Of a stretch of 59,979 bases of DNA, positions 6,798-37,100 are shown one piece after another. Source of the DNA: an uncultured virus (IMG/VR IMGVR_UViG_3300032298_000389). Lineage: Duplodnaviria > Heunggongvirae > Uroviricota > Caudoviricetes. A model generated the notes under the pieces. That model was not told where the DNA came from. It saw nothing but the letters and a program-made list of their open reading frames with translations, and made no database searches. Location of the stretch: the IMG/VR virus record IMGVR_UViG_3300032298_000389; one strand, 5' to 3'. The translations under genes were made by a program, and so were the position numbers. How positions within the stretch are numbered: the first letter of the stretch is position 1; each line of letters begins with the position of its first letter.

Positions 6798-9700
6798 ATG
6801 ATAAAGGTTAGAATAAAAAAATTACCAATAGCAAGAACTGGATATCAAGTTCAAGGTGCTTTAGCAAATGATGTTCCTGCAATGGGAGGAGCAGATTATA
6901 ATGCATATATTGGTAAACCAAAACTTCGTGAAAGTAAATATATCACTGCTGTCCCTAGAGAAGAAGCAAATCTTGAAGCAGAAGGAGGTGAAACAGTATA
7001 TGGTGATATAAATGGTGATGGGTTTCCAGAACATCAAATCATCAAAGGACCAAGACATCATAGTGGTGGAGTTCCATTAAATCTTCCTGATGATACTTTT
7101 ATCTTTAGTGATACTAGAGGTATGAAGATAAAAGATCCTGAAATTCTTGAAATGTTTGGTAAAGTTGGAACAAAGAAAGCATATACTCCAGCTTCTCTTG
7201 CTAAACAATATGATATACAGAAGTACAGAAAAATTCTTGAAGATCCTGAGTCAGATCATTTAGATAGAAAAACAGCTGAGTTAATGATTAAAAAGTTTGT
7301 CATTAAACTTGGATGTCTTGCACTTGCACAAGAAGCAAAGAAAGGTTTTCCTCAAGGTATTCCTGCAGTTGCAAAACCTTGTATGGAGGCTAAAGGTATT
7401 ACTGAAGAAGATGTAACTCCAAATAAAGAAATTGCAGCACTTTCTAATCAAATAAAAAGTAAGTATAAAATTGATGCAAATGCTGAAGAAACAATGGAGT
7501 CAGAAGAACAATCTGATGATATTGCTGCAGCAGAACAAATGAATCAAGGTCAACCTGTTGCTCAACCTACAGAACAACAAATGCAACAACCTTCACCAGA
7601 AGAAATGATGATGTACGGTGGTGGTTATAGAAGATTAAGAAGAGCACAAGAAGGTATAGAACAAGTTCCTGAAGAAGAAATGATAGAAGAACCACAGCAA
7701 GAAGGTGGTAATCAAATGATGGAAATTGTTCAAGAAGTTAGTGCTGCATTAGAACAAGGTGCCGATCCTCAAGAAGTTATTGCAAGTCTTTTACAAAATG
7801 AACTTCCTCCTGAAGCTATAGTAGAAATATTTATGCAATTGGGTGCTTCAGAAGAAGAGGCTGTTGGTCTTATTCAAGAAGTACTTCAAGAATTACAAGG
7901 TGGTGGACCAGAACAAATGATGTCTGAGGAAGGACAACAAGCACCCCCTATGGCAATGTATGGAATGTCTATGGGTGGTTATGATATGCCATTCTATGAT
8001 GAACCAGAGTATAATGAAGAAGATATTCCTGAAGCAGAGTATGGTATGGCTATGGGATCTGGTATGTCTCAAAACTATCAAGGTAGACCAAAACCTATTC
8101 CCGGATCCGGACCAATGTTCCCACTCCCTAAAGCAGATGATGGTAAAATAATAAAAAGATCTGATTATCCTGATGAAGCATCTTTTGAAAAAGCATTGTT
8201 TGATGCTGATTTACAAAGACAAAGTGGTGCACTTAAAGGAAAAATTCAAGTTATAGATTCTTCAGGTAAAACAAGAACTTTTAAAGGATTTAAAAAAGAA
8301 AGAGCTGAGGGTTATGGTAGTATAGATATTAATACATTTGGTGGAGATACAGATGCTGCAAAACGTGCAGCAGCACAATATTACATTGTTAGTGAATCTA
8401 TAAAAGATGATAAAGTAAAACAGCAAATAATAAATAACACAAAAGCTGCTCTTGCAAATGAAAAACATTTTAGAGGTAAAGGATCAACTGGTCCATCAAG
8501 CAATTGGACTGATAGAGGTTATGCAATGCCTACAGATCAACAAATTATAGATAACTTTTTACAACATCAAGAACGAAATCTTAAAATACAAGGATATGGT
8601 GTTGATCCTGAAATGTTTAATGATATTGGTAATGGTTTTAGAAGTTGGAATAGTTTTAAAACTAATGTAATTAATGGAACTGGTAAAAAAGTAATAAACC
8701 CAGCAACAGGAACACCAATAACAAATGAAGCTGAATTTAATGCATACAAAAAATATTTAGCAACAAATTTTGGAGGAAGTATTAATGGTTCTGGTGTGCC
8801 TTCATTATCATTGATGCAGGTATCCAATAAAATTGGTGAACCATTTGAGAGTGATACTAAAACTAGAGCATTACAACAAGCAACATTTCATGGTTATGCA
8901 TTAACTATGGAAAATTATGATAGTTATGATGCCGATACAAAATATGCATTAAGAAATTTAAGAGGTGATTTACAAAGAGGTGTAGATGATGAAACATCTA
9001 TGTCACCTTTATTTCCAAAACAAAAAGGAATTAGAATTTCTCCTATTGATGATTTCTTTGATCCTTCTTCTTCTGTATATGGTAATACAACATCAGGTCA
9101 CTTAACAGGTGCTATAAGAAATACAGTAGAGTATGAAACAGATCCAAATAATCCACCATGTCAATGTGATGATGAAACAAAACCTGATTATGGTAAATGG
9201 GATGAGACACAAAAGAAATGTAATCCAGAATTATGTAGTACATCATCAGTAGTTAAAAAGAAATGTCCTTGTGTAATCATTGATGAAAAAACAGGAGAAA
9301 AAACTACTATAGAACAAGAACCTGTAAATGGTGAATGTCCTCCATGTGAAAAAGATGAAGATATTGATATTGAAGGACCTCCTGCAGAATGGTGGTTACA
9401 AGATACAATTAAAACTACTGGTGCATTTGGAGATCTAATGGGTGTTAAAAAATACATGCCGTGGGCACCTGCAGTAGAGTTACAAAAACCAAGACCTACT
9501 TTCTTAGATCCTACTAGAGAACTTGCTGCTAATGCAGAACAAGCAAACATCCAAACCCAAGGTATGGCACAGTTTGCAGGACCTCAAGCACTGTCTGCAA
9601 GATCATCTGGTATACAAGGTCAAGCTGCTAAGAATGCTGCAGATATACTTTCTAAGTATAACAATGCTAATGTTAACATAGCAAATCAATTTGAGTTAAA

Positions 9701-10205
9701 AGGTACTGATATTGCTAACCAAGAATCAATGTTGAAACAAGCAACTGCTCAAAGACTATATGATCAGAATACAGTTGCAAATCAACAGTTTGATAACTCT
9801 AAGTTGGCAATGAGAAACAACTTAAGAAACTACTATACAAATGCTATTACTAATAAGTGGCAAACAGATGCATTAAACCAAATGTATCCTAATTATGCAG
9901 TAAGACCTGGTGTAGGTGGTAGAATGGAATTTAAACCAGGTGATAGACAAGTAACTGGAAAAGGTGCTGGAAGTACAATGACTAGACAAGAAGCTTACAG
10001 ACAATGTAGACAAATGAATCCAAATGCAACAGACCAAACAAGATGTGTTGATTCTATGATGAATGCATCACAAGGATCTGCAAATTCAGGAGGAGCAAAT
10101 TCTCAAATAGGAATGAGTATGTATGGTACACAAAGAAAACAAAAGAAAGGTGGACAGTCTAATGGATATCTTTATTTAGATTCATGGCTTCCATTTTTAA
10201 TGTAA
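6798..10205 (+). CDS. Putative virion cargo/ejection protein (1135 aa)
   Basis: N-terminal EAEGGE...GPRHHSGG...IFSD segment of the kind recalled from Bacteroidota-phage virion proteins, a Cys-rich patch (9159-9347) and an N/Q/A-rich helical C-terminal region. Confidence 0.7.
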   Translation: MIKVRIKKLPIARTGYQVQGALANDVPAMGGADYNAYIGKPKLRESKYITAVPREEANLEAEGGETVYGDINGDGFPEHQIIKGPRHHSGGVPLNLPDDTFIFSDTRGMKIKDPEILEMFGKVGTKKAYTPASLAKQYDIQKYRKILEDPESDHLDRKTAELMIKKFVIKLGCLALAQEAKKGFPQGIPAVAKPCMEAKGITEEDVTPNKEIAALSNQIKSKYKIDANAEETMESEEQSDDIAAAEQMNQGQPVAQPTEQQMQQPSPEEMMMYGGGYRRLRRAQEGIEQVPEEEMIEEPQQEGGNQMMEIVQEVSAALEQGADPQEVIASLLQNELPPEAIVEIFMQLGASEEEAVGLIQEVLQELQGGGPEQMMSEEGQQAPPMAMYGMSMGGYDMPFYDEPEYNEEDIPEAEYGMAMGSGMSQNYQGRPKPIPGSGPMFPLPKADDGKIIKRSDYPDEASFEKALFDADLQRQSGALKGKIQVIDSSGKTRTFKGFKKERAEGYGSIDINTFGGDTDAAKRAAAQYYIVSESIKDDKVKQQIINNTKAALANEKHFRGKGSTGPSSNWTDRGYAMPTDQQIIDNFLQHQERNLKIQGYGVDPEMFNDIGNGFRSWNSFKTNVINGTGKKVINPATGTPITNEAEFNAYKKYLATNFGGSINGSGVPSLSLMQVSNKIGEPFESDTKTRALQQATFHGYALTMENYDSYDADTKYALRNLRGDLQRGVDDETSMSPLFPKQKGIRISPIDDFFDPSSSVYGNTTSGHLTGAIRNTVEYETDPNNPPCQCDDETKPDYGKWDETQKKCNPELCSTSSVVKKKCPCVIIDEKTGEKTTIEQEPVNGECPPCEKDEDIDIEGPPAEWWLQDTIKTTGAFGDLMGVKKYMPWAPAVELQKPRPTFLDPTRELAANAEQANIQTQGMAQFAGPQALSARSSGIQGQAAKNAADILSKYNNANVNIANQFELKGTDIANQESMLKQATAQRLYDQNTVANQQFDNSKLAMRNNLRNYYTNAITNKWQTDALNQMYPNYAVRPGVGGRMEFKPGDRQVTGKGAGSTMTRQEAYRQCRQMNPNATDQTRCVDSMMNASQGSANSGGANSQIGMSMYGTQRKQKKGGQSNGYLYLDSWLPFLM

Positions 10206-13449: not shown

Positions 13450-16400
13450 ATGGCAGAGAACTCTCAAAATAGTAATCCTACACCAATGGATGATTTTTTA
13501 GCACAAAGTGATGCATTAAATCCTGCTAGAATTGAACAACCTGGACCTATTCCATTTAATTTTAATGAACCAAAACCAGTAATTAATCCTATATATCCTA
13601 CAAAAGATTATGGAACTGGTGCATCACCAAACTATTATCCATCACAGGTAAAAGATAATTCACCAAATAATCCTCAACAATCTATAGATACATTGTTTAA
13701 TGAAACAATGAACAAGATCAACGGTGCTCAAGATACTAATAATTATGGATATGCCTTTGGTTATGATAGTTCTCCTAAAGGAACATTTAGAGATAGGATT
13801 AAAGGTTATGGTCAAGAGACGTTTAATAAAATTGGGTTTAGTCCATTAATAGATAATGAAGCTTGGTTCAATTCAAAAACAACATTTAGTGATGATTTAT
13901 CTAGATGGTGGAATCATTCTGCATGGCCTATGATGTCTAAAGGGTTTATGGACCCTATTAAATCATATGCAAGTGTAATAAGTGGTGATGGTCTTTTTAA
14001 TGCAGATGAACAAAGTGCAAGAGACTATGAATACTATAATGCAATAGGTCAGTCAAGTAAAGGTGGTCTTGGAGGGTTTACTGTAAACCTCTTTAATTCA
14101 GCATCCTATTCTATGGGTATACTTACAGAAGGTGTTGTAGAATCTGTTCTTATTGAAGGTCTTACAGGAGCTGCTGGTCCAGCCGGTGGACTTGTTGGTG
14201 CAGGATTTGGTCTTGGTAAATTTATGAATAAGCTTTCTCAAGTACCTAAAGGATTATATAATACTGCTAAAGGTACTATTAAGCTTGCTGAGACTATGAA
14301 AGATTATAGTCAATTGTCAAAGGCAAAAGGTCTTTTTAAAACTGCATCTGCAAACTTTGGTAACTTTTTAAATCCAGCAAGTAATACTACAAGAGCTTTA
14401 TTTGGTCAAAATATTAATAACATAAATGACCTTGCAAGAGCATCTAAAACAGCAGGTGCATTCTGGCATGACATGATGGTAATGAACTTAGCATTATCAG
14501 AAGGTAAACTTGAAGGAGGTTTTACAAAATATCAAACATATGATAGATTGTATAATGAATATGTTGCTGATCCAAAAAACAAGGGTCAAGCTCCTTCATT
14601 AGAAGAACAAGAGAACATGATGAAAGAAGCTACTAAAGCTTCATTTTGGAATACTCTTAATAATACTGCACTTATTTTTTATTCAAATAAACTTGTTTTT
14701 CCTTCACTGACTAATGCTAGTTTTCTAAAGGGAGCACCTAAATTTGGATTTGGTACAGTACTAGGTGATATTAATAAAGAGTATCAGTTAGTATTTAACC
14801 CAGGAAAAAATATTGCAAAATCAACATTCTCAAAAGAAAAGATTGGATTAGTTAATGCAATTAAATCTTTAGGAAGACCTGCAACATATGGTAAAGTAGG
14901 TCTTAATTACTTTAAAGCAAATGTAGTTGAAGGTGTTCAAGAATCATTACAAGATGTTCTTCAAGAAGCTACTCAAAACTATTATGTAAATACATATAAG
15001 AATAATGCAGCAAAGAATTTTTTCTATGGTGCTGGACTAGTTGGAGATGCAATCAATAAACAATTCTCTGCACAAGGTGCTGAAACATTCTTATCAGGAT
15101 TTTTAATGGGTAGTCTACTTCAGGCTCCTAGTAAAATAAAAAGTTATATGACCATGGGTTATAATGACTATTTTAAAAAGGATGCAAAGTATAAAACTTA
15201 CATGGAAGAAAGAGAAGCTGCAGCTAATGAAGTTGTAGAACATATGAATACCATGTGGGAAAATAGTCATTACTTGTTTGATCCAAGAATGACTAATTAT
15301 GCTACACAAGCTTTATTATATGATACAGTTGCTAATCCTGAAGAAACTACTACTAAACAAATTCATGATGATAAGTTTGCAGCATTTCAAACTGCAGTAA
15401 TAAGTTCATTGCAGAGAGGTACTTTTGATATGTTTATTAAACATTATGAAAATTACAAACAAGCTACTCCTCAAGATATTGAAGAAGCATGGCATCTTAA
15501 ACCAGGTCAAGGTGCAAAAGCACTACAAAATTTTGGTGAGTCTTTAGAAAATGCAAAGAAGATTGCATATAGATGGGGTGAAGCAAAAGATAATTTTACA
15601 AAATATCAAGCTGACTTAAACAACTATGAAAAAGATAGTTATCAGTATAAGATGGCTGAAATATATAATCAAGCATTTTCTCAGTCTTTGTTTAACTATG
15701 TATTTTTACAAGGTGCTTTTGATGATACATCAGCAAGGATAGGTAAGTTATATAATAAACTTGCTCAGTTATCTACTATTAAAAATTCAAACTTTGCAGA
15801 CTTTGCAGGCTTTACAGATCCTGGTAGATTACAAAGAGAAATTGAGATGATGAAAACTGACATAGAAACATTAGAGCAATCAGGTGTTCCTATGGCAGCA
15901 GAAGATCTTGAAAGAAAAAGAAAAGTATTAAGTTTATATACTGACTTCCAAGAAAAACAACACACTATATTAAACACTTATATTGCTAAACAAAAGTTAA
16001 CAGCTCTTACAGAAAAATTATTAGAAGATAATCCTGATCTTACAAGAGAACAGCTTAACTTAAAAGTAATAGATAATCTATTAAAAAAGTATGAGAACGG
16101 TGAAGTGACTGAGTTTGATGAATATAAAACTTCATTTAAAAATCTCTTATTTGGACTAGCAAAAACTGAAGAAGAAAAACTTCAATTACAACAAGAGATA
16201 AATTCAATCAAGGGTGGGATAGATACTTTATTTGATGATCTACTTGATACACACATCTTAAAGAATGAAAAGAATGAACTAGCTCCATTGATTAATATTC
16301 TTTCTAATCCTAATGATTTTTATGATCATCTATTGAGAAACTTTCAATGGATGAAAAATCTATATCATAATAAAAGAAATCTTATTAAAGATATAGTAAA

Positions 16401-19400
16401 CTCAGAGATATCTAATATAGAGAGAAATACATTATTGAATGAATTAGCTGATCAAAAAATATTTGTAGATCTTGATGAGTTTGCAAAATGGATTGAGAAT
16501 CCAATGTATAGACCAGAAGGTTTTATTGATGTAGCAAATAATGCATATATACCTAAAGGTAGTTTACTTTATGATAAGTATTATAAGATCTTTGAGAGAG
16601 CTGCTCAATTAGAATCTACAAAACCTGCAGGTGAACCTGTACCAGATGCTGAAGTATTGCAAGATATTATTGATGATCTTACTAAAGATAGAGATAAAAG
16701 ATTAGACTTAGCAAAACAAAAGTTTGATCAAGCTTTAAAAGACAAGTATGATGCAACAGAACTAGAATTAAGAAAACTTGCAGAGGAAGCATTGAACAGT
16801 GTTGGAGAAGATTTAGAATCAGAACAGGCAAAACTTGATATATATAAAGAATGGCTTTCTGATTTAGAATCATTAACTGGTATTGAAAAAGCTGCTGCAG
16901 GATTAGTAAATGCTGATATTATAGATAATCAAGAATTACTTGATGCAACAGATGCTCTATTTGATAATCCAGATTTAACAGATACAATTATTGAGTTACG
17001 TAATAAAATTATGAAAGCAAATCCAGAAATGGATGCTGATAATGCTATTAGAAATGCAGGTTTTTATTTATCTACTAAACCATTAATTGAAGACTTAATT
17101 AAAGAACAAGAAGATTTAGTTAAAAATATCAAAACTCCAGATTTCATCAATGTTGAAGAAACTCCAGAATGGGAACAATATCAAAAAGAATTAACAGATA
17201 TCAATGATGAATACGAAGCACAAGTAAAAGAAGCTAAGTTAGATTTTGTAGAATCTGGTGGTAATCCTACTGATGTTAGAGAGTATTCAATAGAAGATCA
17301 GTTTGAAGACTATCCTGAAGATCTACAGGAAGAACTTAATGGTGTATTTGATGACTTCTTAACTACAAGAACTAATGAACCAAATACTCTTAAACAAGAT
17401 GATCCTGGAAGATATAACACTCTTCGTGAAAGATGGATGGAAAATGATCCAGTAGCACAAGATATTCTTGATAAGTATAATGAAAAGAGTAAACAAGAAG
17501 CAATTAAAAATGCTACAGTTGGGTTAACTCCACCTAAATTATTATTTGGTGATGCTGTAATAGAACCAGGTACTCCTTTAACAAACATTACTGATCTCTA
17601 TGATGCATATGAAAAAGCAATCCAAACTAAAGAACTGGAAACAGAAACTGGTAAAATAAAATTATCTGCAGATGATATTAAAGCTATCAAAGAAGATATG
17701 AAAGCAATTGCTGCATATATTGATAGTAAAGAAAAAGCATTTAGATTAAAACCAATTGCTCAAGAAGTAATTGAAAGAATTGAAAATACTATATTCAATA
17801 GACAAAATGAGTTAGTTTTATCTGTAGATGAAGAAGGTTTTGAAAGTAGAAGATTTAGAGATTCTAAACCAGAAGATCCTAGACCAGAGAGAGCAACAGA
17901 AGTTGCTTCCTTAATGGAACAAGAAATAGAAGACAAAGCTCCATTTGTATTTAATAAACTTGAAGATAACAGTATTCAAAACTTATTTAGAGAAATAGTA
18001 CTTGATAATCCTATTGGATCTTTAGAAGAAAGAGTAGATGCATTTCTAGCAAGTCTTAGAAACTATGAACAGTTTAAATCTGATACAAAAATTGCAGGTA
18101 TAAAAGAAAGTTTAATGCTTGATCAAAGTATTGAAAATCTTGAAGATGTAATTTCTAAATATGCATTTAAAGAATCAAGTGATTCAGGAACCAACCTTGA
18201 TGCCATAATTAGACAGTTTTTAACTCTTGATCCTAGAGGAGGATTTGTACAAGTAAATTATGATTCTGTTATTAACGTAAGAGGAACTGAAAAGAAAGTT
18301 TCTGAAATGATGTCAAAAGAAGCATTTGATTTTATGTTTCATCCTGTTACAGGTAGTGCTACTAGATTTAGAAGAAACATGATTGATGGTGGTTATCAGT
18401 TATTTACAAATGATGTAAAAGTATTTGATAGAAATGCAAGAGATGGAAGAGGGGTAACTGGTGAATTAGACTTACTATTGATTGATACAGATGGTAATCT
18501 AGCCATAGTAGATATAAAAGCTGCTCAAGAAAAAACTTGGAATAATTTAGGTGTTCCTAATGTCATTAGTAAAAAGACAGGAAAAGAAATTTTAGATGAG
18601 AATGGTCAACCAATAAAAAACAGAGGTAACAAGAAAACATACTTTAGAGCTCAACAAAGTATTTATAGAAACAGTATCTATAACATGAGTGGATTAGATG
18701 CTGGTATTTTATTGTATCCAATTGAGATGGTAGTAACTAAAGATGGTTTTATTACTAAGTTAAGTAAACCTACTGCTGATTTAACAAAATTCAATACACT
18801 TAGTGAAAATGGTATGTTTATCGTATTGGAACCTATTGATGATGCAATCATGCAGAAATTTGGATTCAATAGAACTGGTCCTACAGATACTGTTGAATTA
18901 TCTCAAATGGGAGAAGAAGAAGCTCCTATTAAAGCTGGATCAATTCCTATTAGTGATCCTGAGAAAACTACTCTTAATGATTTTGTTAATCAAGATGTTA
19001 TCTATCAAGGTAAGCTAGGAAAATTAGTTGTTAATCTTGATGGTGGTTTTTCTGTTGAGGTTAGTGAAGATGGTAAGATAGTTCAGTATGATGTAAATGT
19101 TTCTGGTAAAAATACCAAAGACGGAACTATGAATATAGTTAAAGCCGGACTTTCTCCTATTACAGCAGCAGAACTTACAGGACAAGTAACACAAATAGCA
19201 GGACAAACTATTAATGCTAGATTCCTAGATAAGAGTGAAAGAACTGCAGAAATAAATGGTGTTACATATACCATCAATAGAGATGCTACAGGTGCTATAA
19301 TTTCATTAACTTATAATACTAATGATAAAGCTATTGCAGAAACTCAAAAAGAAATAGATGAGTTAAACAAAGAAATAAATGATCTTAAAAAAGAACCTAA

Positions 19401-20691
19401 AAATAAAATCAATACAAGAGAGATTACTGCAAGAACATTTGAAGTAAACAAACTTATCAGTAAAAAATCTGAATTGATTAATAAAAATAAAAGAAGAACT
19501 CGTAGAGGTGGTAATACAGATGATTTAATCTTTGCATTAAACAGACTACCAAATAGATTTCAAAAACAAGTTTCTTCAGGTGAGCCTACAGATAGAGAAG
19601 ATCAAGTTAAAATGATTGCTCAATTGTCTGAATCAGAGTCTGTTACAAGAGAGATTGACCGTATCTTGTTTGAGCATGGAATGCCAAAAGATGTAGAAAA
19701 TATTATTGATGGTAAAGTAGATGATCTTACCTCTGCTAAAAAAAGAAATTTAGATGATTGGGGTATTGAATTAATTATTAAACTTGAAGAATACCAGAGC
19801 AGACTGGCTAATGAACAAAGATCAACTGTTCCTGTAGATAATATTATAGAAGCAGTAAATGAACTACTGAATAATATAGCTACAATAAAATTTAATAAAA
19901 ATGGAAAAATCAGTAAAAAATCAATCAAAGAGTTTGCAAAAGCCCGAGCAAAAGTACAGCAGGGGACAAATGTATCTCCTATTCAGAAGTCTACCGGAGC
20001 AGCAACAGAGGGAGTTCCTGGACAAGCAGTATCAAGAGAAGATCTTACGAAACTCATCCAAGAGTCTAGACAAAGGATCCAAGGTATAGAGATTGGAGAA
20101 ACTCCAGTAGAGGATGAAGATATCCAAGAGATCAGATCTAAGATGGAGGTAGCATTTGAGGATGCAACTTTAGATACAATTGATACTATTTATGCAAATG
20201 CAATAATAGAATTTACATTTGGATCTGATAAGAATTTTAATATTGATATAGGTAATATACTTAATGAAATTTGGCAAGCAAAAAAAGATGCTCTTCAAGA
20301 AGATATGTCATTAGAAAATCTTGATGAAGGTGCCATACTAATTAACAGACAACCTTTCGGTACATTTAAAAAAACAAACGAAGTGTTTACTGTAAAAAAT
20401 GTTGATTCTGAAGCTCAAACTGTAGAATTATTTAATCCAAAAAGAAAGAAAAGTTATACCTTTACTGAGGAAGAAATTAAAAATAATTTTATGAAACCTA
20501 TAGATGAAACAAAACCTATAGAGGAAATAACTGTAACACCTCAGATAAAGGAAAACATTAGATCTACTGAATCTAATATAACAGATTTAGCCAAAAATCC
20601 TGATGCATTAGATCAAATTGAAGAAGAAAGTGAAAATCTTTCCCCTGAAGAAAGATTGGATAAAATAAAAAATATTTTTAATCAGTGTTAA
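13450..20691 (+). CDS. Giant virion ejection protein (2413 aa) with Gly-rich membrane-type segments and a PD-(D/E)xK (RecB-like) nuclease domain
   Basis: GLTGAAGPAGGLVGAGFGLG and FLSGFLMGSLL in the N-terminal part; SGTNLD...GVTGELDLLLIDTDGNLAIVDIK...YFRAQQSIY at about 18180-18670; long acidic coiled regions. It is adjacent to the virion RNAP, as in crAss-like phages. Confidence 0.75.
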   Translation: MAENSQNSNPTPMDDFLAQSDALNPARIEQPGPIPFNFNEPKPVINPIYPTKDYGTGASPNYYPSQVKDNSPNNPQQSIDTLFNETMNKINGAQDTNNYGYAFGYDSSPKGTFRDRIKGYGQETFNKIGFSPLIDNEAWFNSKTTFSDDLSRWWNHSAWPMMSKGFMDPIKSYASVISGDGLFNADEQSARDYEYYNAIGQSSKGGLGGFTVNLFNSASYSMGILTEGVVESVLIEGLTGAAGPAGGLVGAGFGLGKFMNKLSQVPKGLYNTAKGTIKLAETMKDYSQLSKAKGLFKTASANFGNFLNPASNTTRALFGQNINNINDLARASKTAGAFWHDMMVMNLALSEGKLEGGFTKYQTYDRLYNEYVADPKNKGQAPSLEEQENMMKEATKASFWNTLNNTALIFYSNKLVFPSLTNASFLKGAPKFGFGTVLGDINKEYQLVFNPGKNIAKSTFSKEKIGLVNAIKSLGRPATYGKVGLNYFKANVVEGVQESLQDVLQEATQNYYVNTYKNNAAKNFFYGAGLVGDAINKQFSAQGAETFLSGFLMGSLLQAPSKIKSYMTMGYNDYFKKDAKYKTYMEEREAAANEVVEHMNTMWENSHYLFDPRMTNYATQALLYDTVANPEETTTKQIHDDKFAAFQTAVISSLQRGTFDMFIKHYENYKQATPQDIEEAWHLKPGQGAKALQNFGESLENAKKIAYRWGEAKDNFTKYQADLNNYEKDSYQYKMAEIYNQAFSQSLFNYVFLQGAFDDTSARIGKLYNKLAQLSTIKNSNFADFAGFTDPGRLQREIEMMKTDIETLEQSGVPMAAEDLERKRKVLSLYTDFQEKQHTILNTYIAKQKLTALTEKLLEDNPDLTREQLNLKVIDNLLKKYENGEVTEFDEYKTSFKNLLFGLAKTEEEKLQLQQEINSIKGGIDTLFDDLLDTHILKNEKNELAPLINILSNPNDFYDHLLRNFQWMKNLYHNKRNLIKDIVNSEISNIERNTLLNELADQKIFVDLDEFAKWIENPMYRPEGFIDVANNAYIPKGSLLYDKYYKIFERAAQLESTKPAGEPVPDAEVLQDIIDDLTKDRDKRLDLAKQKFDQALKDKYDATELELRKLAEEALNSVGEDLESEQAKLDIYKEWLSDLESLTGIEKAAAGLVNADIIDNQELLDATDALFDNPDLTDTIIELRNKIMKANPEMDADNAIRNAGFYLSTKPLIEDLIKEQEDLVKNIKTPDFINVEETPEWEQYQKELTDINDEYEAQVKEAKLDFVESGGNPTDVREYSIEDQFEDYPEDLQEELNGVFDDFLTTRTNEPNTLKQDDPGRYNTLRERWMENDPVAQDILDKYNEKSKQEAIKNATVGLTPPKLLFGDAVIEPGTPLTNITDLYDAYEKAIQTKELETETGKIKLSADDIKAIKEDMKAIAAYIDSKEKAFRLKPIAQEVIERIENTIFNRQNELVLSVDEEGFESRRFRDSKPEDPRPERATEVASLMEQEIEDKAPFVFNKLEDNSIQNLFREIVLDNPIGSLEERVDAFLASLRNYEQFKSDTKIAGIKESLMLDQSIENLEDVISKYAFKESSDSGTNLDAIIRQFLTLDPRGGFVQVNYDSVINVRGTEKKVSEMMSKEAFDFMFHPVTGSATRFRRNMIDGGYQLFTNDVKVFDRNARDGRGVTGELDLLLIDTDGNLAIVDIKAAQEKTWNNLGVPNVISKKTGKEILDENGQPIKNRGNKKTYFRAQQSIYRNSIYNMSGLDAGILLYPIEMVVTKDGFITKLSKPTADLTKFNTLSENGMFIVLEPIDDAIMQKFGFNRTGPTDTVELSQMGEEEAPIKAGSIPISDPEKTTLNDFVNQDVIYQGKLGKLVVNLDGGFSVEVSEDGKIVQYDVNVSGKNTKDGTMNIVKAGLSPITAAELTGQVTQIAGQTINARFLDKSERTAEINGVTYTINRDATGAIISLTYNTNDKAIAETQKEIDELNKEINDLKKEPKNKINTREITARTFEVNKLISKKSELINKNKRRTRRGGNTDDLIFALNRLPNRFQKQVSSGEPTDREDQVKMIAQLSESESVTREIDRILFEHGMPKDVENIIDGKVDDLTSAKKRNLDDWGIELIIKLEEYQSRLANEQRSTVPVDNIIEAVNELLNNIATIKFNKNGKISKKSIKEFAKARAKVQQGTNVSPIQKSTGAATEGVPGQAVSREDLTKLIQESRQRIQGIEIGETPVEDEDIQEIRSKMEVAFEDATLDTIDTIYANAIIEFTFGSDKNFNIDIGNILNEIWQAKKDALQEDMSLENLDEGAILINRQPFGTFKKTNEVFTVKNVDSEAQTVELFNPKRKKSYTFTEEEIKNNFMKPIDETKPIEEITVTPQIKENIRSTESNITDLAKNPDALDQIEEESENLSPEERLDKIKNIFNQC
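19901..20089 (+). CDS. Candidate overprinted small gene (62 aa, +1 frame inside the 2413-aa gene)
   Basis: A-rich start context (ACAATAAAATTTAATAAAA-ATG), and the host frame shifts to atypical codons over this interval. Confidence 0.45.
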   Translation: MEKSVKNQSKSLQKPEQKYSRGQMYLLFRSLPEQQQREFLDKQYQEKILRNSSKSLDKGSKV

Positions 20692-29600: not shown

Positions 29601-31141
29601 CATCTGAATTAACTAGTAGAGGTGCTTTTGTTAAAGCTAACAAAGATGGTACTAAGTTCATGTATATTGATGAGAAAACTTTACGTGAAGAGTTTAAATC
29701 TGGAGCATGGGAAATAGGTTCTGAAGAAAATAATAGCTATGAGAATAGAAACATGTATGCTTTAGATCCAAGAACATTTAAACAAAATGGTAAGTTGAAC
29801 TTTGAACTGTATATGAAGTTTGTAGCTGAAAGAGAGTTTTTAAGATCAGAGTATCCTATTAATGAAATGGTTAACAAGTCTTGGTTTAGAAGAGAAGGTT
29901 TGGATCTTTATGAAGCTAACCCTACAGTAGATGGTGGTACTTTAGGTAGATTTGTTTATGAGAGATATATTACTAATAAAGCATTAGATAATGTATATAA
30001 TTTTTATCATCTATTCATTGATAAAAATAATGCTCTTGCATCAAGATATTCTAAATTTATAACACAACATAAAAATTCATTACTACAACAGTATGACGTA
30101 CTTGATGCATTAAAATATGAATCAAATAAAAGTCGTTCAATATTCAATATATATCTTGCTGATAAAGACATGAATAGTGATAAGTCAAATGTTTATACTA
30201 TGAATCTTAAAAATCTTTCAGATAGATCTGTTATGAAAATAGCAGACAAAGATGAAAATGATAGGATCAGTGACATGTTTGCTTTGATGTCTAATTTTGC
30301 TTTCTTACAAACAGGTCTCAACAAAACTAAATTAAACTTTACAAACATTGTAGACTTTACTAATTTCTTAGATGTAATGAAGGAAGAATCAGAAAAATTT
30401 ACGAGAGCATTAGATGCTAATGCAGGACCTATATTAGATGATTTCTTTGCACAATTTAAAGAACAAAATAGCCGTAAAAATATTGATAGTGGTAGGTTTA
30501 AAGATTATCTAAACAACATAGACTTATCTAAACCAAATGATGTTGAAGTAAGGGATACTGAGATAGAAGAATCCCCGTATGAACTTAAAGAAACTAGTAT
30601 GACTAATGTATTTGCTTACAGAGATCAGCTAGGTAACAAAGATTTCTACAAAGGTCTTGCACTTAATAATCCTGATGTAGTATTTATTAGAAATAATGTC
30701 AATACTACTTACAAGGATCCAAAGAAAAATTTTGGAGGTCAGCAAGAATTAGATAGTTTTGCCGGAAACATGACAATGAATATTACTACCTCATTAACCA
30801 AAACAAATGATAACTTTGCAAATCTTCCTAAAACAGCATATAAAGATGTTATAAGATTGTGGGAAGAAGAGATTGCACATATTCAAGGTGTTAATGATGG
30901 TAAAGCAAAACTTACAAAAATTGCATTTCCAACAACAGGTTTTGGTGATCCTGCATTGATGCCTCAAGAATTATTTGTATATTTAAGTAGAAGATTGTTT
31001 GATGAATTTGGATATGTTAACCCAGGATCTGTAATGTATAATGAAATGCAGGGAAATAATACACTTGCTGAAGGTATAACAAATGAAGAAATACTAGAAC
31101 AATTAGGTTTAGAAGAAGATCCATTTAAAAACTGTGAATAA
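20693..31141 (+). CDS. Virion-packaged single-chain RNA polymerase, crAss-like (phi14:2 gp66-type), with zincin and accessory domains (3482 aa)
   Basis: RIPVQGLNSM followed by the catalytic DxDxD motif GADYDIDKL (28001-28027), ADGQGY upstream, and HEAWH...EEDIAEDF zincin motif (from 23375). Size and position match crAss-like vRNAPs. Confidence 0.9.
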   Translation: MACELNVDAVKYVYGYVYGEISDRESGKNKNPLDIKVMMKDFYNYLNSLPNDGFESEEDKKEKALYFAQSIPQILGLVAARPKARDYILKTNTQLFIDIPTLASEYSDIKKVEVLVKPTIKTRKTAKKEVIEALEEKSVPKEDETKKYSYAEYASKVIYPNGTSGQEAVPIDPETGLPKNEKDPEKGLFYEVIKDIVYIVKSTTNDEVLYGEDESVSLALTLMPVSKADPAMFTSKDKIDQKTYGVRGIVAIITDTAGNEVYFNDDGSINRDGNGRRIYQFVRKPYVENGKLFFLNKYNKKTSLVPAEEVAENWAKQKRAQKIYPKKEEIAAKVVEIRNKQTKLFNDLLRLREYIESTEEAVTVKITDGSFGMSNDTKKFYPIQETGLGVEDLDFKPLGDDYPGRWGVVINKTRPGVTVDQLLLLQRSNISDDLAGHIADILTTKAKLKGRELTPQQRREFFENFINNDFEEGEITSPDKIQVKESVDENGQAILNVSINGEEPIPQNVLYTEKGRKLIFDHLKTAKTDWELYEKQTAKEKTTYSAALNYVNTLMGRSFTDYILDKSTNKLAEVEEDYFEFIKDKMLIQYPADTAAYFSGMNAYLNFGIPQNIIPANEQVYELGEPASNKEDNAPVKKAQNSEPNAKVRNVTKYQKAKDLYNEGKGTWGMRPATGLEPLVPFAEHVGNPWSTQKDALNKNVLIVKDVATAVKNYEDWLTGKKFKTVEQKRRKFILDAIEKGWFNNTTFIYYKPVGKSYRSHVDVLVDMINKRNRVESADIIINEPIEQPKPAPKKQAVAVKATVSSILNNKNRKQYLKRDVKLNSFFEKIFTTKKARDKAFDWWEQSFISQTKINGEAPISLQRLTEIANSDAVATFDKSGITLYKGSTNIDIYHEAWHAFSQLFLTPEEQESLYEDVLKTPKYTNKNYATKEEAYSDIEEDIAEDFRSFMKSEKFKESLPKFLRTIFERIGAFLRWAYGKVTRQDMTRPRDIPRVREMFEVLRTNKPEEAIKKGLFQSLNATTQNMSFTKLNRGKRTIQPIKANKNINEFTPEETMQIMNTMDGMAALAFQDYNLDHNSTVGYIRISEVPQNRIQMYEDMKDNFYGALTYYVEQLEEITLKNVNADEITPEDAAEEKKLTDMVDFIKRVVDNFGDIKLSLDKKQQTGVIAHHMKKSRFTMLKESYNEIEDTTSIEAMQMLKDASGNILSSKQVASEETLMLLSGLFKPERGSDGRVVRDEDGAIVYKRDMFGIPELEKVDDVWNKLAKILEGSYDVVEMHQRILDSMGNYPELEQLLNLLPQLAHTDIESNGYRMPTEFRAETNFWQDLKKPRIRYIQLNIDKEADDKFTAKLSKASMDVYAVTSEWEYNFAVANPSVNDFIEQEGGNNLLNLDKIINRFGKKSAMSAKDSIEFLKALGIELDLSSSTIRNMVFDPKVNFALDNGLNKMLDAMKVVQSSTNEPLKDEFRRNPLKMLREGLPVDLRKDKEKSLDVQARIRLLAEIQNEFSDRFSNFSVLNAERNRVWEHFVDNTITRVITSINKAETYQELTQSEDFKHMHWLAKKNNTLAPFSQLLNSVFYMKFDPRKPEQYGTKRKDAKLLLQNITGTQFITKNINETTGSNTSSMDAVGKFLQEYHTMLMNGVEEFMRHASKNMAMGLTVDRDTEIKSYSGKKNKKLYIDIDAFEPGRDGELRGAQIMLGYLSGEANRIFRFKNNINKFKNYAGYNREVKDKLGRTVMAGEAFTLFDDILTKPNQEVLYDIIQSAIDNNQPAFNMADILDDNPDLRDGIEMDIIKYFNLLTKENLDRLNENKYVDSKLSSEYIKKGVVDTKEDAINMLTKAYSYNSFIHKYETVILAYGDLAQYNHAKEEFHKRNAGLGSGGKGFRADQWAQQFINTELSKDYIDNLNQTRSDKNKLVARKYDGTFNTAIMKELKMNSEYYNEYLAELTKVYTERYGDSVKAKQLAEKVLKEYKNMKVADGQGYLTIEAYRNLKWLEGNWSDEQEALYKKISNGENISIEDAIQFFPPYKLQYFGNIKSEGLPVNSFHKFSLAPLIPGVAKEGTQLYDLHLKMMEQQIDYVTFETGSKVAHIGSGDEVFNEDGTFNNNVTFTPNVIYAEYLKNQTEINSSYKGVSIFSTQLRKMILEGLYENGEIKSKDKEFVKGRAEDYIRKVEFLTNIHKLQLLDEIGYEEVDGEFIPTSNASTEKIANMIRTNLEKDDLLSDDLIDFIDVYEKDNTLVNDLSFHPESAKIEKLLLSIINKKVIKQKVKGEALVQMSSAFFNNYSSIPAELTTGNKKQRDEIIKKYVGTNFLPTYHKKANGFTAAMKVMISMQGDYLKLFNLEYSNDETIGVYFDNGDLDMNASLERLNEKIKDDEWLDANNEANRKAITMMGVRIPVQGLNSMEFMEVYHFLPPQAGNIVIPPAEIVAKSGADYDIDKLTIFMTNLNESGNVKKPEYNTYKDFKNQYDFMKSTGLSTGQIEMFFEQQKAGVENELIQSMKNILELPDNYASLITPNSNYILEPIAEELSKYVMEYDPFANKMTEENVNTDGKKIISPTRILESLYNVYKHESNIVGKRTLGLGAIENTFNVIFNSLGAYMPNEYTHTVGKDNQERTAHLWLKHHKLNVDGKEHISISNMFDVNNEYKVADVLAQMINGWVDVEKDPWIFFIQGNYETAPILLYLLKTGVPVNEAVYFVSNPLTIEYIKEKNLGQSTFAELLGKKPEYKAKLAQEAAGRVIRKYFNRNELKMDSSQFDRYTKGVEMAEDYLEDRQEKTFTKDEMLGLIKNFKQNNGKLTEKETDLAKTMFLHFLEIEQQITGLTALKLSSNPDTATRSTASEIELSEASIDQLSSETKIPKELLTKMLNDSVISSFFNGPLSLAVIRPLFKLKYNKHISNYIVENAKLFRSTSSKLLGERKVDTFITMFRNDLINMIFQNAIRKYKMDDSYMSYTIKKEIPTALASELTSRGAFVKANKDGTKFMYIDEKTLREEFKSGAWEIGSEENNSYENRNMYALDPRTFKQNGKLNFELYMKFVAEREFLRSEYPINEMVNKSWFRREGLDLYEANPTVDGGTLGRFVYERYITNKALDNVYNFYHLFIDKNNALASRYSKFITQHKNSLLQQYDVLDALKYESNKSRSIFNIYLADKDMNSDKSNVYTMNLKNLSDRSVMKIADKDENDRISDMFALMSNFAFLQTGLNKTKLNFTNIVDFTNFLDVMKEESEKFTRALDANAGPILDDFFAQFKEQNSRKNIDSGRFKDYLNNIDLSKPNDVEVRDTEIEESPYELKETSMTNVFAYRDQLGNKDFYKGLALNNPDVVFIRNNVNTTYKDPKKNFGGQQELDSFAGNMTMNITTSLTKTNDNFANLPKTAYKDVIRLWEEEIAHIQGVNDGKAKLTKIAFPTTGFGDPALMPQELFVYLSRRLFDEFGYVNPGSVMYNEMQGNNTLAEGITNEEILEQLGLEEDPFKNCE

Positions 31142-34100
31142 TGTCTTGTCAAGTACAAATTAATACTATTAACTTATTACAAAAGAATAATGTAATTGAT
31201 GATTTTTCAAAAGGTGGTAGAAACAGAATATTAAATATAACTGAGTTTGATAGACTTAATGATAAGTATACTCAACTTGCTAAAATAAAATATCCTAATC
31301 TATCTCAAATAGATGGTCAATTACTATTTACTATAGATGAAATAGAAACAACTGATTCATCAAGATCAACTTACTGGAGAGATGCCAAGTATAAAACACT
31401 ATGGGCCGTCCCTAATAAAGAATTCTTTGATAAGATACAAGTAGAATTTGACAAAGCACAAATGCCAGAATCTGAACCACAACCTAAAGTAGGTCCTGAT
31501 GGTCAGTATAAATTATTTGGATTAAGTTTTGATGATCCTGAAAAACTTGAGTTTGAAACAACTACATTAGGTGTTATTAATCAGTTTCTTGAAAACATTG
31601 GTGTAGAACAAAGACTAGTGTCTAACTTCTATACTAATGAAGGAACTCCTGTAGAGGGTGCACTTGCTGCTGCAAACTTTATTAAAGGTACAGTAGATAT
31701 TATAGATGACTTTGAGAAAAGACCTTCTGCATGGAATAAACTTCCTGAAGAGGCTGCACACTGGTGGTATAGATTATTAAAAGAAGATTCTGGTCTGAAA
31801 AAACTATTGTGGGAGTCCCACAAAACAACTACAAAAAGAAATCAACTTTATAATACTGCTTACGGTAAAACAGTAAATAAACCTGAAGATCTTACTGAAG
31901 AAGCAATAGGACAACTTATTGCTGAAGCAATTAAGAAAATTGAAAATCAAGAAGGTGCACCAGAAGACTATGGTTTCTTAAGAGCATTTATTAAATGGGT
32001 TGATAGTTTAATAAAATCTTTTGTATCACTTGTAGAAGATCCATTTGAAGTAGCTGCAATGAAGATACTTTCATCTGACATGACTGATCTTATGAGCTTT
32101 GATGAGTATAGAAAACTAAATGATATAGTTTACTTTGATACAATTCTTGATGATCAATCTGTGGCTCCTATGGACTATACTATTATAGAAGATATAGGTA
32201 TTCCAGTTCGTCCTGGAAAAAACATATTTGATGAAGTAAATAGTAAATATTATTTTGTATTTAGTTCAGGAGAAGATATACTAAAAGGTAGACAATCTCC
32301 TAAGTTTGATACACAAGAAGAACTTGATGCTTGGGTCTATACAAATATAAAAGAGTATGCACCTAGACAAAAATCAAAACTTCAAGAAATTAAAGACACA
32401 GAAGTATTCTTTGATAGGCTTTTAAATAAAAAGTATAATAAAAAAACAAGATTTTTAAAGAAAACACTTTCAAAATATTATCAAATTGTTGGTGGTAGTA
32501 TGCAGTCAATGAGATTTGATAATTGGCAACCTTATGAAAATGACTTACAGATTACTAAACCACTTGATAAAAATGAGAAAAAGATATTAAAAAATACAAA
32601 CAATTATACAAATCTTACTCCAACCTTAAAAGTACTACCTTTAATACTTCAGAAATACAAAAAAAATCCAATTATACTATCTGAAAAATTAAAAGTAGAT
32701 GGTATAAAAAAACAGGAATCTGAAGTAATTGAGGCTGTTAAAGATTTAATTATAAAAGAAAATCCTAAATTAAAAACAATTTCAGCTGAAGATCTTGTTA
32801 ATGAAGTATATAATTATTTAAAAGCAAATTACACATTAGGTTTTGCAAATGAGTTAGACCATTTAAGTTATCGTATTAATTCTACTTTTTATAATACAGA
32901 TGGTGGTGAAGGTGTTGTAGAACATAATAAAATATCAATAAGATTTAATGATACATATCATTTAAAACGTGGACATTTTAAATATGCACCATCTGCTTGG
33001 GCAAATCTTACTAAATTTTATTCAAAAAGTTTAAGTGAAAAAGATGCTGTTTTATTACATGAAATTCAAAATGATAATATTGAACATCTTAGAGATTTTT
33101 TACGTAAAGATAATCCATTAGAAAGCTCATATGAATATTTTTTAAATGATGTTGCTAATCAATTACAATCAAACATTGATAGTATTTTAAACAATAGTTT
33201 TAAAATAAATAAAAACAGTGATTTTACTAGTTATTATAATCAAAGTTGGATTTCTTATTACATTATTGCAAATTCAAACAATTCTGTTGCTGATGCTTAT
33301 AGACAAATAAAACAAATGACTCAAGAAAAAATTGACTTGTATGACAGTTCAAATTCTAAGGAAGATGTTGATTTTTATTTAAAAGAAGTTGATAAAGCTT
33401 ATGGTAAAAGAATGATAATACAAAGTATAATAAGAAATGGTGGTCTTAAGGCTTTACTTACAAAACAACAAATAGATGAGATTCAACAGCTTATTAATGA
33501 TGCAAATAGTGGTGATTTAATAACACTTAATTGGAAAAAAAACACTTTTGCAAAAAGTATGAAACCATACATTGATATTATAAATGAAAATTATAAATCA
33601 AAATATGGTGTAGGACAAAATTTAATAGATGATGTATATCAGTTAACAATTAAAGCTCAACCTAGAAGTGGTTATTTAGATATAGATAGAAGTGTAAATA
33701 GATTTCTTTCTGCTAATACTACAAAGTTGTTAACTAACAGTAATGAAGTAATAGATGATACTAAAAAGAGATTAGTATCAGCATATAAAGCAGCAAGTGC
33801 TTATAATTTTAGCAAACAATTTATTAAAATAACAAAAGAACAATTTACTGAATTACGTGAAAATATATTGTTTAATCAAAATTTATTTGAAGAATCTATA
33901 GATATACAATCTAAAAAAGATTTACAACTTGCTGCATCAAATGTTTCTAATTTAACAGATTCTGAAATTATTTCTGATTTACAAGAAGATCCTTTTACTG
34001 GTTTTACTTATAAAGGTTGGTCATTAGATGCTTATACAGAAAAAGAAGCTATAAAAGAAGTTAGAGAATTAACTTCTGAAAGAAAAATAGAAATTCAAAA

Positions 34101-37100
34101 AGAAAAAGTTGAAAAGGTTAAAGCTAAAGCAGCTGTTAAAAAACAAGAACTTGATGAAAAGTATAAATCATCTAAACTACAAGCTGCAGATATTTTACCA
34201 ATGGAAATGAGTTATTTTACTCCATTAATACACTATACTATTCAAAAACATATAAAAGAAAATGGTAAAAACACACCATTATACTTTAGTGGTTTTAATA
34301 TTACTAAGTTAACTCAAGGAAATGATAGAACAGCACTTATATATGCTGGTAAAGATGAAGTAAAATTTACTAAAGAAGAAGCTGATAAAATTAAATATCA
34401 AGCTGCATTAAAATTAGGTCTTCTTCAAAGTGCTGATCAAATTGATGACTTAAAAGGAGAGTTAGAATATTACGAAGATTTATTACAAGCTGATGATGAT
34501 TATTTTATATCTGAATATTTTAATCAAGATGCTTTTGATAGGATATCAGTTGAAGAAAGAAAAAAAACTTTGATAGATGCAAAAGAAGTAGTTAAAAAAA
34601 GAGTAGATAATTTAAGAGATAAACTATCAAAATCAAAATCTTCTGAAAATGTAGAAGAAGCTTTAAAATTACTTGCTGATTATAAAAGACAATCTGAAAA
34701 CAATATGAATGATGTTGTCAATATGATTATGAATATAAGTAATTATCAACCAATTGAAACAGGTGCTATTTATAATGCAATGTCTCAAATTCCTGGAGTA
34801 AAACTAATTTGGGTACCTTCAATAGAAGGTATTAATGGAGAACCAGGAGGATATAAAGTAGATCTTACTAATTACAATTTTGAACAACCTGTACTATATG
34901 GTTTAGATACTACAGCAACTAAGTCTGCTGATACTGTTACTGAACCTACAGAGATGTATGGTATTCCATTAGTAGATATTAATGTAGATACTTTACAAGA
35001 TGCCAGATCTAAAAGAGTTGCTGAAGTTCTTGCTCAAAAATTAAGTCTTGGATTAAATATAAGATTTGAAAATATTACTCCAGAACAAGCAGCAAAACTT
35101 ACAAGAGTAAGTCCAACTCCTTATAATGGAGAAGCTGCTTTTTATTATGCAGGAACAGTATATGTAGTAGGTGATAATATAAATATTAATACTATACTTC
35201 ATGAATTTTCACATCCTGTAATCAATGGTATCAGAATAAAGAATAAAAAACTATTTGATAATCTTTATGAGTCTATGATGATGACTGTAGAAGGTCAGCA
35301 AATCCGTGACAATGTTCTACAGAAGTATCCAGAACTGGGATCTAATCCAGACTTACTTAAATCTGAAATACTTACATATGGTCTTCAGTTAGCTGCAGTT
35401 AATAAACTAACAGGTAAAATACAAAGTGAAGGATTTGAATCTGTTATTAATAAATTACTTGCTTCTATAAAACAACTCATAAGAAGTATATTTGGTAACA
35501 AACAAGGTATAAGTGACATTAATGTAGACACAACTATTGATGAGTTGGGTAGAATGTTACTTGAAGATGAGATTGATTTATCAGAGTATGATGTTACTAA
35601 TGATGACTTAATTCAGTATGGTAAGTTTGTAACAGAACGAGCAAATGAATTAACTAAATCAATGGGTTCCTTAGATTTAGAAAAAGTAATTAATGAATGG
35701 TATGCAAGTAACAAAGCAATTCTTGATAGAGCTAGAAATTTTAAAACTGATAAGGCAATAAAAGAAATGCTTACCAAAAGTATTTTTGGTGAAAAAGAAG
35801 GTTCTACTAATTTACTACCTGAAGCAGTATCATCATTAAGACGTTTTCAAACTATAACAGACTTTGGTAAATATAGTAAGGACCAATTGATGAATAAAGT
35901 TTTAGATGCTGAAGAAGATAGATTAAAAGAACTTGATAGACAAGCACGGGCTCTTATCAATAGTATTGATAAAATAGATGTCATTGCTCAAAACATGTTA
36001 AATGACTTAGGTAAAATATATAGAGAAAAAAATGTAAGTGCTAGAAATACAATTGCTCTTGTAAACTTCTATAAACAAAACAGTTATGCATGGAAAGAAA
36101 CCATTGATCAGTTTAATGAAATCATTAGAGAAGGTGGTCTTAGTATGGATAAAGATAACCTATTCTATAAAGTAATTAATAAAATCAACGCTAATCTAGA
36201 TGAAATCAACGTAGTTATTTCTCAAATATATAAGAAAAATAATATTCAGTTCTATGTTGAATTAACTGGACCTATGAATGAGTTTGTTCAAGATGAATTT
36301 AAAAAGAACTTGAATACAGCATTTAAAAATGCATATAAATCTGAGGCAGATAGAGATGCTGCTGTTGATAGTTTTTATAATAAAGTAATTTCTCAAGAAG
36401 ACGTTACTGATGATTTAGAAGCATTATATAAAAATGGTGTACCAAAAGATGTGCTTGTTAGATTCTTGAACTTATATCAACAAATGGTAGCTACTCCTGA
36501 AAAGATTCAGAATGCATTGACGGGACATGCAAAAGATGTAAGTTGGTTTAATAGATTCTTAGAAAGTTATACTTCTAGTAATGATCCTATTGTAGGTTCT
36601 TTAGCCTTATTTATCCAAAATCAAAGAACTGAAATTACAAATGACTTTATGGATGAGTCTGGTTCTTTCTTAAAATCACTGGAAAAACTATTACCTCAAG
36701 TAAACTTTACTAAACTTAATGTTACTCAGATACAAGATATGGTCACATATGAAGACACTATTTTGTATTGGGATAAAGATACCGGAAAACCAATTGAGAG
36801 AAAGATAAGAACTTTCTTACATGAGTTTGGTAATGGTTATAGATATGCTGAAGATATACTTGAGTACAACCTTGCAGAGGCACGGGCATCTAAAAATCAA
36901 GAAAATATTATTAAAGCTAGAGAAGAACTAAAAGAGTTTAAAAAAGATTACATGTGGCAGGAGTTTGTTCCTGAGTACTATGAATCTGATAAAGTTTATG
37001 ATGAAATTATACCTGGTTATGATGCAGTTACTAGTAAGAGAATTGCAATGGAAGCATATTCTGATAGACAAAATGCATTAGATGATTACAATAACTTAAT

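Follow-up and report, generated by a model that had tools for sequence, protein, structure and literature searches.

In phage lambda, the gene Rz1 is embedded in the +1 frame of Rz. Part of a structural gene is also overlain by a second, conserved and selected frame in the tailed-phage frameshift products lambda G/GT and T7 10A/10B, which depend on a slippery site and need no start codon. The window analyzed here is a stretch of 59,979 nucleotides from an uncultured virus (Duplodnaviria; Heunggongvirae; Uroviricota; Caudoviricetes; IMG/VR record IMGVR_UViG_3300032298_000389), and it contains a 62-codon open reading frame (ORF) at positions 19901-20089 within a giant gene at 13450-20691. Comparison of the sequence with its relatives indicates, with a probability of about 0.8, that this ORF truly codes for a protein, as a gene overprinted on the giant gene in its +1 frame.

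The arrangement resembles Rz1 in Rz in that a small same-strand gene lies wholly inside a larger phage gene and has its own start (for Rz1, PMC5295617 and PMC6139136). The products are different: Rz1, a lipoprotein of the outer membrane, carries a signal peptide and a lipobox Cys, and Rz, in which it is embedded, is a small membrane protein encoded in the lysis cassette. In contrast, 49 of 49 versions of the small protein described here are without Cys or a hydrophobic segment (top 19-residue Kyte-Doolittle mean 0.33), and the host protein exceeds 2400 residues and has no family match. No lysis genes were identified beside the giant, whose neighbours are unannotated. An embedded outer-membrane spanin of the Rz1 type is ruled against by the lack of a signal peptide and of a lipobox Cys in the 49 versions. 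A single-gene lysis peptide of the phiX174 E or MS2 L type was also rejected; no segment comes near the hydropathy of a membrane helix. The exception in composition is P0029, an unconfirmed singleton relative of 84 amino acids on a 617-nt contig, which has an extra N-terminal hydrophobic stretch ending in Cys and resembling a lipoprotein signal. This head is uncovered by any of 18 IMG/VR matches, which all begin at residues 25-46 of P0029; chimeric assembly could account for it, or P0029 could be a secreted variant.

Small viruses also have overprinted genes (phiX174 B, K and E; accessory proteins such as PB1-F2 and PA-X; reviewed in PMC8227390), which resemble the present case as short frames of de novo origin in an older gene, restricted to a lineage and with unusual codons. 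In both settings the overlap involves one disordered product, here a predicted one, and disorder in one partner is described as relieving the mutual constraint of an overlap (PMC8227390). These viruses have tiny genomes under size pressure, whereas the lineage studied here consists of uncultured double-stranded DNA (dsDNA) phages with records of ~100-136 kb, and structure models here predict the host frame as the disordered partner and the nested frame as the ordered one. Unlike lambda G/GT and T7 10A/10B, every version of the nested frame has an ATG, and most have a stop just upstream of it. A nested same-strand overlapping gene is a known kind of phage gene, and for this family, host gene and lineage no description was found in the literature. 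That check is a weak one: the full-text search yielded general studies of overlapping genes and of spanins, and none of them dealt with this gene.

The ORF stands far above chance because of its conservation in relatives and not because of its length. An IMG/VR scan with the single protein gave no relative, but alignment-based scans yielded 92 loci, 52 from metagenomes and 40 from IMG/VR. The region is present in 61 of these loci. Another 22 end before it (their matches run to the end of the locus and reach query residue 2043 at most), and the other nine (L080-L085 and L090-L092) encode a complete shorter giant of 1937-2283 amino acids that lacks the C-terminal part. All 61 loci with the region contain an ATG-started ORF of 49-72 codons at the homologous place, always in the +1 frame of a long host ORF. 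A profile hidden Markov model of the peptide found 61/61 of these loci and nothing convincing in the remaining 31. When a database relative of the peptide was used to seed a second scan, 18 more loci were obtained, which all carry the nested ORF (18/18) and contributed four new versions, so that 49 + 4 = 53 distinct nucleotide versions are available. A homologue with a stop in this frame or without the ATG occurred neither among the 61 loci nor among the 18 further ones. The density of +1 stops in these genes is 8.5%, and only 807 of 104,429 50-codon windows elsewhere (0.77%) are free of stops in the +1 frame. Stops are abundant in the +1 frame upstream of the ATG. In 27/49 versions a +1 stop is located only one or two codons 5' of the ATG, after which the frame is open for 49-64 codons. 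The ATG is kept in relatives that have different host residues at this place (Tyr-Glu, Tyr-Ala).

The pattern of variation points to selection in the +1 frame. In the gap-free core of 23 codons, which encodes YSRGQMYLLFRSLPEQQQREFLD, the ratio of nonsynonymous to synonymous polymorphism (pN/pS) was 0.36 in the +1 frame versus 1.71 in the host frame. Nucleotide diversity in the core was 0.265, 0.215 and 0.49 at +1 positions 1, 2 and 3; with its peak at the +1 wobble position, the distribution is that of ordinary coding sequence when read in the +1 frame and is inverted when read in the host frame. Mean pairwise identity of the 49 versions amounted to 0.484 for the +1 peptide versus 0.373 for the host frame over the same bases. 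Among eight distinct close relatives, the central changes are replacements in the host protein (Ser/Pro, Ile/Val, Thr/Ala, Gly/Arg) and silent in the +1 frame. Using a codon alignment of 47 full-length genes, 1802 sliding windows of 23 codons were scanned for the excess of host position 1 over position 3 diversity. The excess was +0.27 to +0.30 in the core and +0.075 in the next non-overlapping window, with a median of -0.093. Among 203 gap-free windows from 17 representatives, the core shows both the lowest +1 pN/pS (0.39; median 0.88, next 0.62) and the highest host pN/pS (1.52; median 0.52, next 0.97). Within the nine closest sequences, third-position diversity of the host frame reaches its gene-wide minimum here (0.143; next 0.255; mean 0.354). 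The check for constraint at synonymous sites, which the first-pass annotation had suggested, turned out in favor of its proposal: host-frame synonymous sites are most constrained here within the whole gene. A per-codon profile limits the constraint to ~19936-20037, and the central ~35 codons evolve as +1-frame coding sequence. With an open ATG-started frame in all relatives that hold the region, selection in the +1 frame and constrained synonymous sites in the host frame, the comparison strongly supports an overprinted gene as it had been proposed from the letters of the window.

The ORF itself is present with the translation first quoted for it, from the ATG at 19901 to the TAG at 20087-20089 in the +1 frame of 13450-20691. 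The first-pass annotation had given the interval 19880..20089, of which the end is correct; the coordinate 19880 includes the A/T-rich leader, and the true ATG is at 19901. In the minimum-free-energy fold of 19860-20100 the leader is unpaired. A start context like that of real genes had also been claimed. It was evaluated with a weight matrix that was built from the real starts of the 22 genes of the window and measures mostly A/T richness, and the sequence from -30 to +15 nt around the ATG scored in the top 0.43% of 1630 internal ATGs. The real starts of the window have no Shine-Dalgarno motif, and the nested start likewise has none. The rare codons noticed in the host frame are indeed infrequent elsewhere: CGA accounts for 1.4% of Arg, ACG for 1.0% of Thr and CTC for 1.4% of Leu codons, and GGG (3.9%), GCC (4.4%), ACC (4.1%), AGG (4.4%) and ATC (10.8%, used four times here) follow the same trend. 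Host-frame codon adaptation over the interval is 0.496, which places it in the lowest 0.66% of 1663 in-frame windows of 62 codons. The ORF coincides with one of six patches of the window with a GC content of at least 0.42, and its patch (19900-20166) ties for the highest value; this GC-rich patch is a by-product of two-frame coding. The coordinates of all features are compiled in the table.

Table. Coordinates of the candidate nested gene, its host gene and associated features in the window.
Feature	Position	Strand	Remarks
Host gene, 2413-codon giant ORF	13450..20691	+	frame 0; product function not assigned; 27 homologues at E<=0.001
A/T-rich leader	19856..19900	+	contains +1 stops, the last being TAA 19886-19888, four codons 5' of the ATG
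GC-rich patch	19900..20166	.	peak 0.467 vs window mean 0.31
Candidate nested +1-frame gene, 62 codons + TAG	19901..20089	+	~7.4 kDa product, pI 9.9
ATG start of the candidate nested gene	19901..19903	+	2nd and 3rd bases of host codon AAT, 1st of GGA
Predicted disordered host linker, residues 2168-2200	19951..20049	+	lies under the nested core
Conserved core of the nested protein, residues 19-41 (YSRGQMYLLFRSLPEQQQREFLD)	19955..20023	+	selection statistics
Predicted helix 1, residues 21-30	19961..19990	+	AlphaFold2
Predicted helix 2, residues 33-59	19997..20077	+	AlphaFold2; confidence drops after ~residue 50

The 49 versions of the small protein comprise 49-64 residues with an isoelectric point (pI) of 9.6-10.7 and a net charge of +5 to +13. 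AlphaFold2, using 47 homologues, predicts a disordered head (residues 1-20) followed by two helices that are connected by a Leu-Pro-Glu turn. The proposed amphipathic helix pair thereby finds a counterpart in the model, in which the predicted local distance difference test (pLDDT) score is 93-95 over residues 21-40. The head is rich in Lys, Ser and Gln, and the first ~18 residues of the +1 product are weakly conserved; the hairpin has conserved Tyr and Leu positions around the Leu-Pro-Glu turn. A complex prediction of the small protein as a homodimer scored 0.02 (mark 0.42), a value that has no bearing either way.

For the host protein, the linker is predicted with a pLDDT of 28-40 and lies between helices, followed by a small beta barrel. 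In the host model, residues 179-211 have a pLDDT below 50 and residues 180-206 are without secondary structure; amino-acid diversity of the host protein in the linker is 0.5-0.85. The description of the host frame as a linker is accordingly right for the centre (host residues 2168-2200) and wrong for the flanks, which are conserved in the host frame. Because host residues 2168-2200 are predicted to be disordered, the nested core appears to be written over a flexible host linker, with the nested frame as the ordered and more constrained partner. The two indications of frame age point in opposite directions. Codon usage (0.50 in the host frame, 0.31 in the +1 frame) suggests that the +1 frame is the younger one, and the predicted order and disorder of the products suggest the opposite. 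The phylogenetic criterion is inapplicable, because both frames of the segment share one distribution.

Searches with the small protein gave no usable relative of assigned function. Pfam returned nothing for the peptide of the window and scattered matches at E values of 0.002 or above among 47 members. The best E value was 0.005 in PHROGs (families of unknown function) and 0.48 in the sequences of the PDB. The fold searches likewise provided no usable relative (Foldseek against the PDB, none; BFVD, best E 2.8; VIA-align, best Z 4.9), and the ESM Atlas contained no usable match to the small protein. The helix-loop-helix protein NblA is a structural look-alike only: it also has ~60 residues and two helices, and 51 residues of 1ojh_A were aligned with a Z score of 4.8 and a root-mean-square deviation (rmsd) of 4.5. 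This score lies within the noise of helical hairpins (no chain reached a Z of 5 or more) and there is no sequence relation, so no functional inference was drawn from NblA. A likeness between the Leu-Pro-Glu...Phe-Leu stretch and the beginning of region 4 of sigma factors was considered and dropped, as the Pfam scan returned no Sigma70_r4. The peptide of the window is absent from a collection of ~15 billion predicted proteins. With the family profile, six representatives of 51-84 residues were found among 1.84 billion cluster representatives, and no fused form occurred. All six were called on contigs of 543 nt to 3.7 kb, one of them also, as a cluster member, on a 12.8-kb contig. Gene callers miss the nested gene, and it is invisible to standard annotation.

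If the ORF is translated as we propose, ribosomes would initiate independently at the internal ATG on the mRNA of the giant, downstream of a leader that is A/T-rich, unstructured and without a Shine-Dalgarno sequence. The product would be a strongly basic protein of 49-64 residues, with a disordered head and a helix-turn-helix hairpin, and it would be made when the giant is made. The overlap would couple the inheritance and the timing of the small gene to those of the giant gene. Its role is a matter of speculation; it could be a small basic adaptor that is co-made with the giants and binds nucleic acid or a partner such as the giant. A more specific version, which we rate as unlikely, sees in it an old dedicated partner, a basic hairpin that would bind the giant (for example at its putative nuclease part or its C-terminal barrel) or the DNA that travels with it, the overlap with the linker having been selected as a lock on inheritance and timing. 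If this is true, the giant would have an escort or antidote that is 'cis-encoded', and such a helper of a giant phage protein would be of a new kind. As an overprinted gene, the ORF would be a clean and comparatively well-supported nested example from a large dsDNA phage, a setting in which genome compression does not suggest itself as the driver, and a concrete target for metaproteomics in a lineage whose giant proteins are wholly uncharacterised.

Several observations weigh against an overprinted gene. Its length alone is at chance level. Codon adaptation of the +1 ORF is poor (0.31) and ranks at the 4th percentile even when the comparison is restricted to +1-frame windows. Constraint is limited to the middle of the peptide, and third-position diversity is back to 0.4-0.6 from about host residue 2197 onward. 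In the contigs of the runs X5 and X6, which are 90-95% alike and have identical differences from the window, four of the five that fall within the ORF leave the host protein unchanged and alter the +1 protein, as read from the codons by eye; three of these are located in the protein tail and none creates a stop. The compared sequences are related, the statistics were calculated without a tree, and the pN/pS values are not corrected for the overlap. The invariance of Met1 arises partly by construction, because the first ATG of each open frame was taken, and the start of one clade is located at a different host column. The gene is also not universal: nine relatives with a shorter giant have neither the segment nor the ORF. 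A free-standing copy was found in none of five such records searched, which are only 33-77% complete, and the positive control for this search recovered exactly one nested copy in 5/5 records.

The length argument speaks for an accidental frame, opened over 62 codons by a GC-rich stretch with fewer stops. Within the 22 long genes of the window there are 19 ATG-started ORFs of at least 62 codons nested, four of them in the sense +1 frame, and one other sense +1 ORF (69 codons) lies inside the same giant gene. When synonymous codons were shuffled within genes (n=500), a mean of 3.08 such +1 ORFs was obtained and 36.6% of the shuffles reached four or more (P=0.37). Another GC-rich patch (7799-8150) harbors a 63-codon +1 ORF at 7960-8151 (+), inside the gene 6798-10205. 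In three relatives this ORF is full length once, has a stop at codon 3 once and ends early after a deletion once, and the Gly/Met-rich host frame over it is well conserved; by these sequence criteria it is a chance ORF. Five other nested ORFs of the giant gene, which served as controls, decay in the same manner, being broken or without the ATG in most of eight close relatives: 18809-19018 and 16682-16873 have stops in 8/8 relatives, two of the other three are fully intact (ATG, no stop) in 1/8 relatives each, and the third in none. Against this behavior and a background of 0.77%, the frame at 19901 is kept in 53 distinct versions, and an accident is hardly credible. The open frame could also be a by-product of base conservation in a nucleotide-level element, such as an RNA structure, an internal promoter or a packaging or other DNA site. 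The GC-rich patch and the strongly conserved third positions of the host frame would fit such an element, but the variation has a strict three-base period and is greatest at the +1 wobble position, a pattern not expected from an element that acts through structure or binding. An Rfam search of the region gave no family at E<=1, the RNA fold was no more stable than shuffles (z +0.46; 130 of 200 shuffles fold at least as well), and the frame is open across versions with as little as 19% peptide identity. This makes a nucleotide element very improbable.

A programmed +1 (or -2) frameshift near 19901-19950 also predicts a conserved and selected frame. Its product would be a giant truncated to ~2150-2165 residues that ends in a basic helical tail, 45-60 residues long, and a free small protein would not be made. 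A-runs at the start of the ORF, AAAAATGGAAAAATCAGTAAAAAATC in the window, could serve such a shift, and the weak conservation of the first +1 residues would allow it to lie after the ATG. The +1 stop one or two codons upstream in the 27 versions places any shift there at or after the ATG. That an ATG marks the 5' end of the open frame in every version, and is retained despite changed host residues, argues for initiation instead, and no slippery motif common to all clades was noticed when the 49 versions were inspected by eye, without a formal motif search; we consider a frameshift distinctly unlikely. The first-pass annotation had gone further than an overprinted gene and offered, within that reading, a small chaperone or inhibitor, for example an antidote to a nuclease domain of the giant or to the virion RNA polymerase during assembly. 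Such a dedicated antidote or chaperone would bind its target and keep it silent until then. Nesting would guarantee co-inheritance and co-expression with the giant, and the giant contains a weak PD-(D/E)XK-like stretch with a D...ExD...DxK pattern, as read by eye, among the invariant residues at 1660-1690. The corresponding Pfam match (PDDEXK_1, E 0.11, 12.8 bits vs a cut-off of 22) is sub-threshold, so the nuclease assignment is not significant; neither of the two neighbouring giants matches an RNA-polymerase family, and the small protein is basic and not a DNA mimic. A role as antidote is thus about as doubtful as a frameshift.

The overprinted gene, as we read the ORF, is located in an A/T-rich window (GC 0.31) with a block of very large plus-strand genes followed by a minus-strand replication module that comprises a DNA polymerase, a primase, a DnaB-like helicase, a Sak4-like protein and an exonuclease. 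The DNA polymerase is ~34% identical to its counterparts in assorted phages. The records of the lineage originate mainly from lake-water and freshwater metagenome runs. A search of sequencing runs gave no RNA run with this sequence, which carries no weight for or against expression. The whole giant protein has no Pfam or PHROG family match. Its C-terminal part has 27 homologues in a large protein collection (29-82% identical), and a phage record collection gave no DNA or protein match to this part or to the first 1183 residues.

Further observations concern the giant gene and its surroundings. At 18400-18540 (host residues ~1650-1695) an invariant Asp/Glu/Lys pattern resembles the PD-(D/E)XK nuclease motif. 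The C-terminal beta barrel predicted at 20299-20499 (host residues ~2284-2350) resembles barrels of the Tudor/SH3-like type, among them the TraI 2B-like translocation-signal domain (9f0z_H; 62 residues aligned, Z 8.1, rmsd 2.0), with barrel scores within the range of a common fold, and the Pfam match of the giant to TraI_2B is weak (E 0.11). Just 3' of the nested ORF, at 20118-20299, the host gene is hypervariable: in contigs of two runs, which elsewhere are 90-95% alike, 180 nt have given way to 177 unrelated nt, and this part is the least conserved portion of the protein alignments. A LysM peptidoglycan-binding domain (E 2.4e-6) was detected at residues 2807-2845 of the 3131-residue neighbour encoded at 31141-40536 (+); it is the sole family found across the eight large plus-strand genes. 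The longest nested antisense ORFs of the window are 9188-9550 (-) with 120 codons and 49689-50003 (+) with 104 codons, and the former overlaps a GC-rich patch at 9413-9674.

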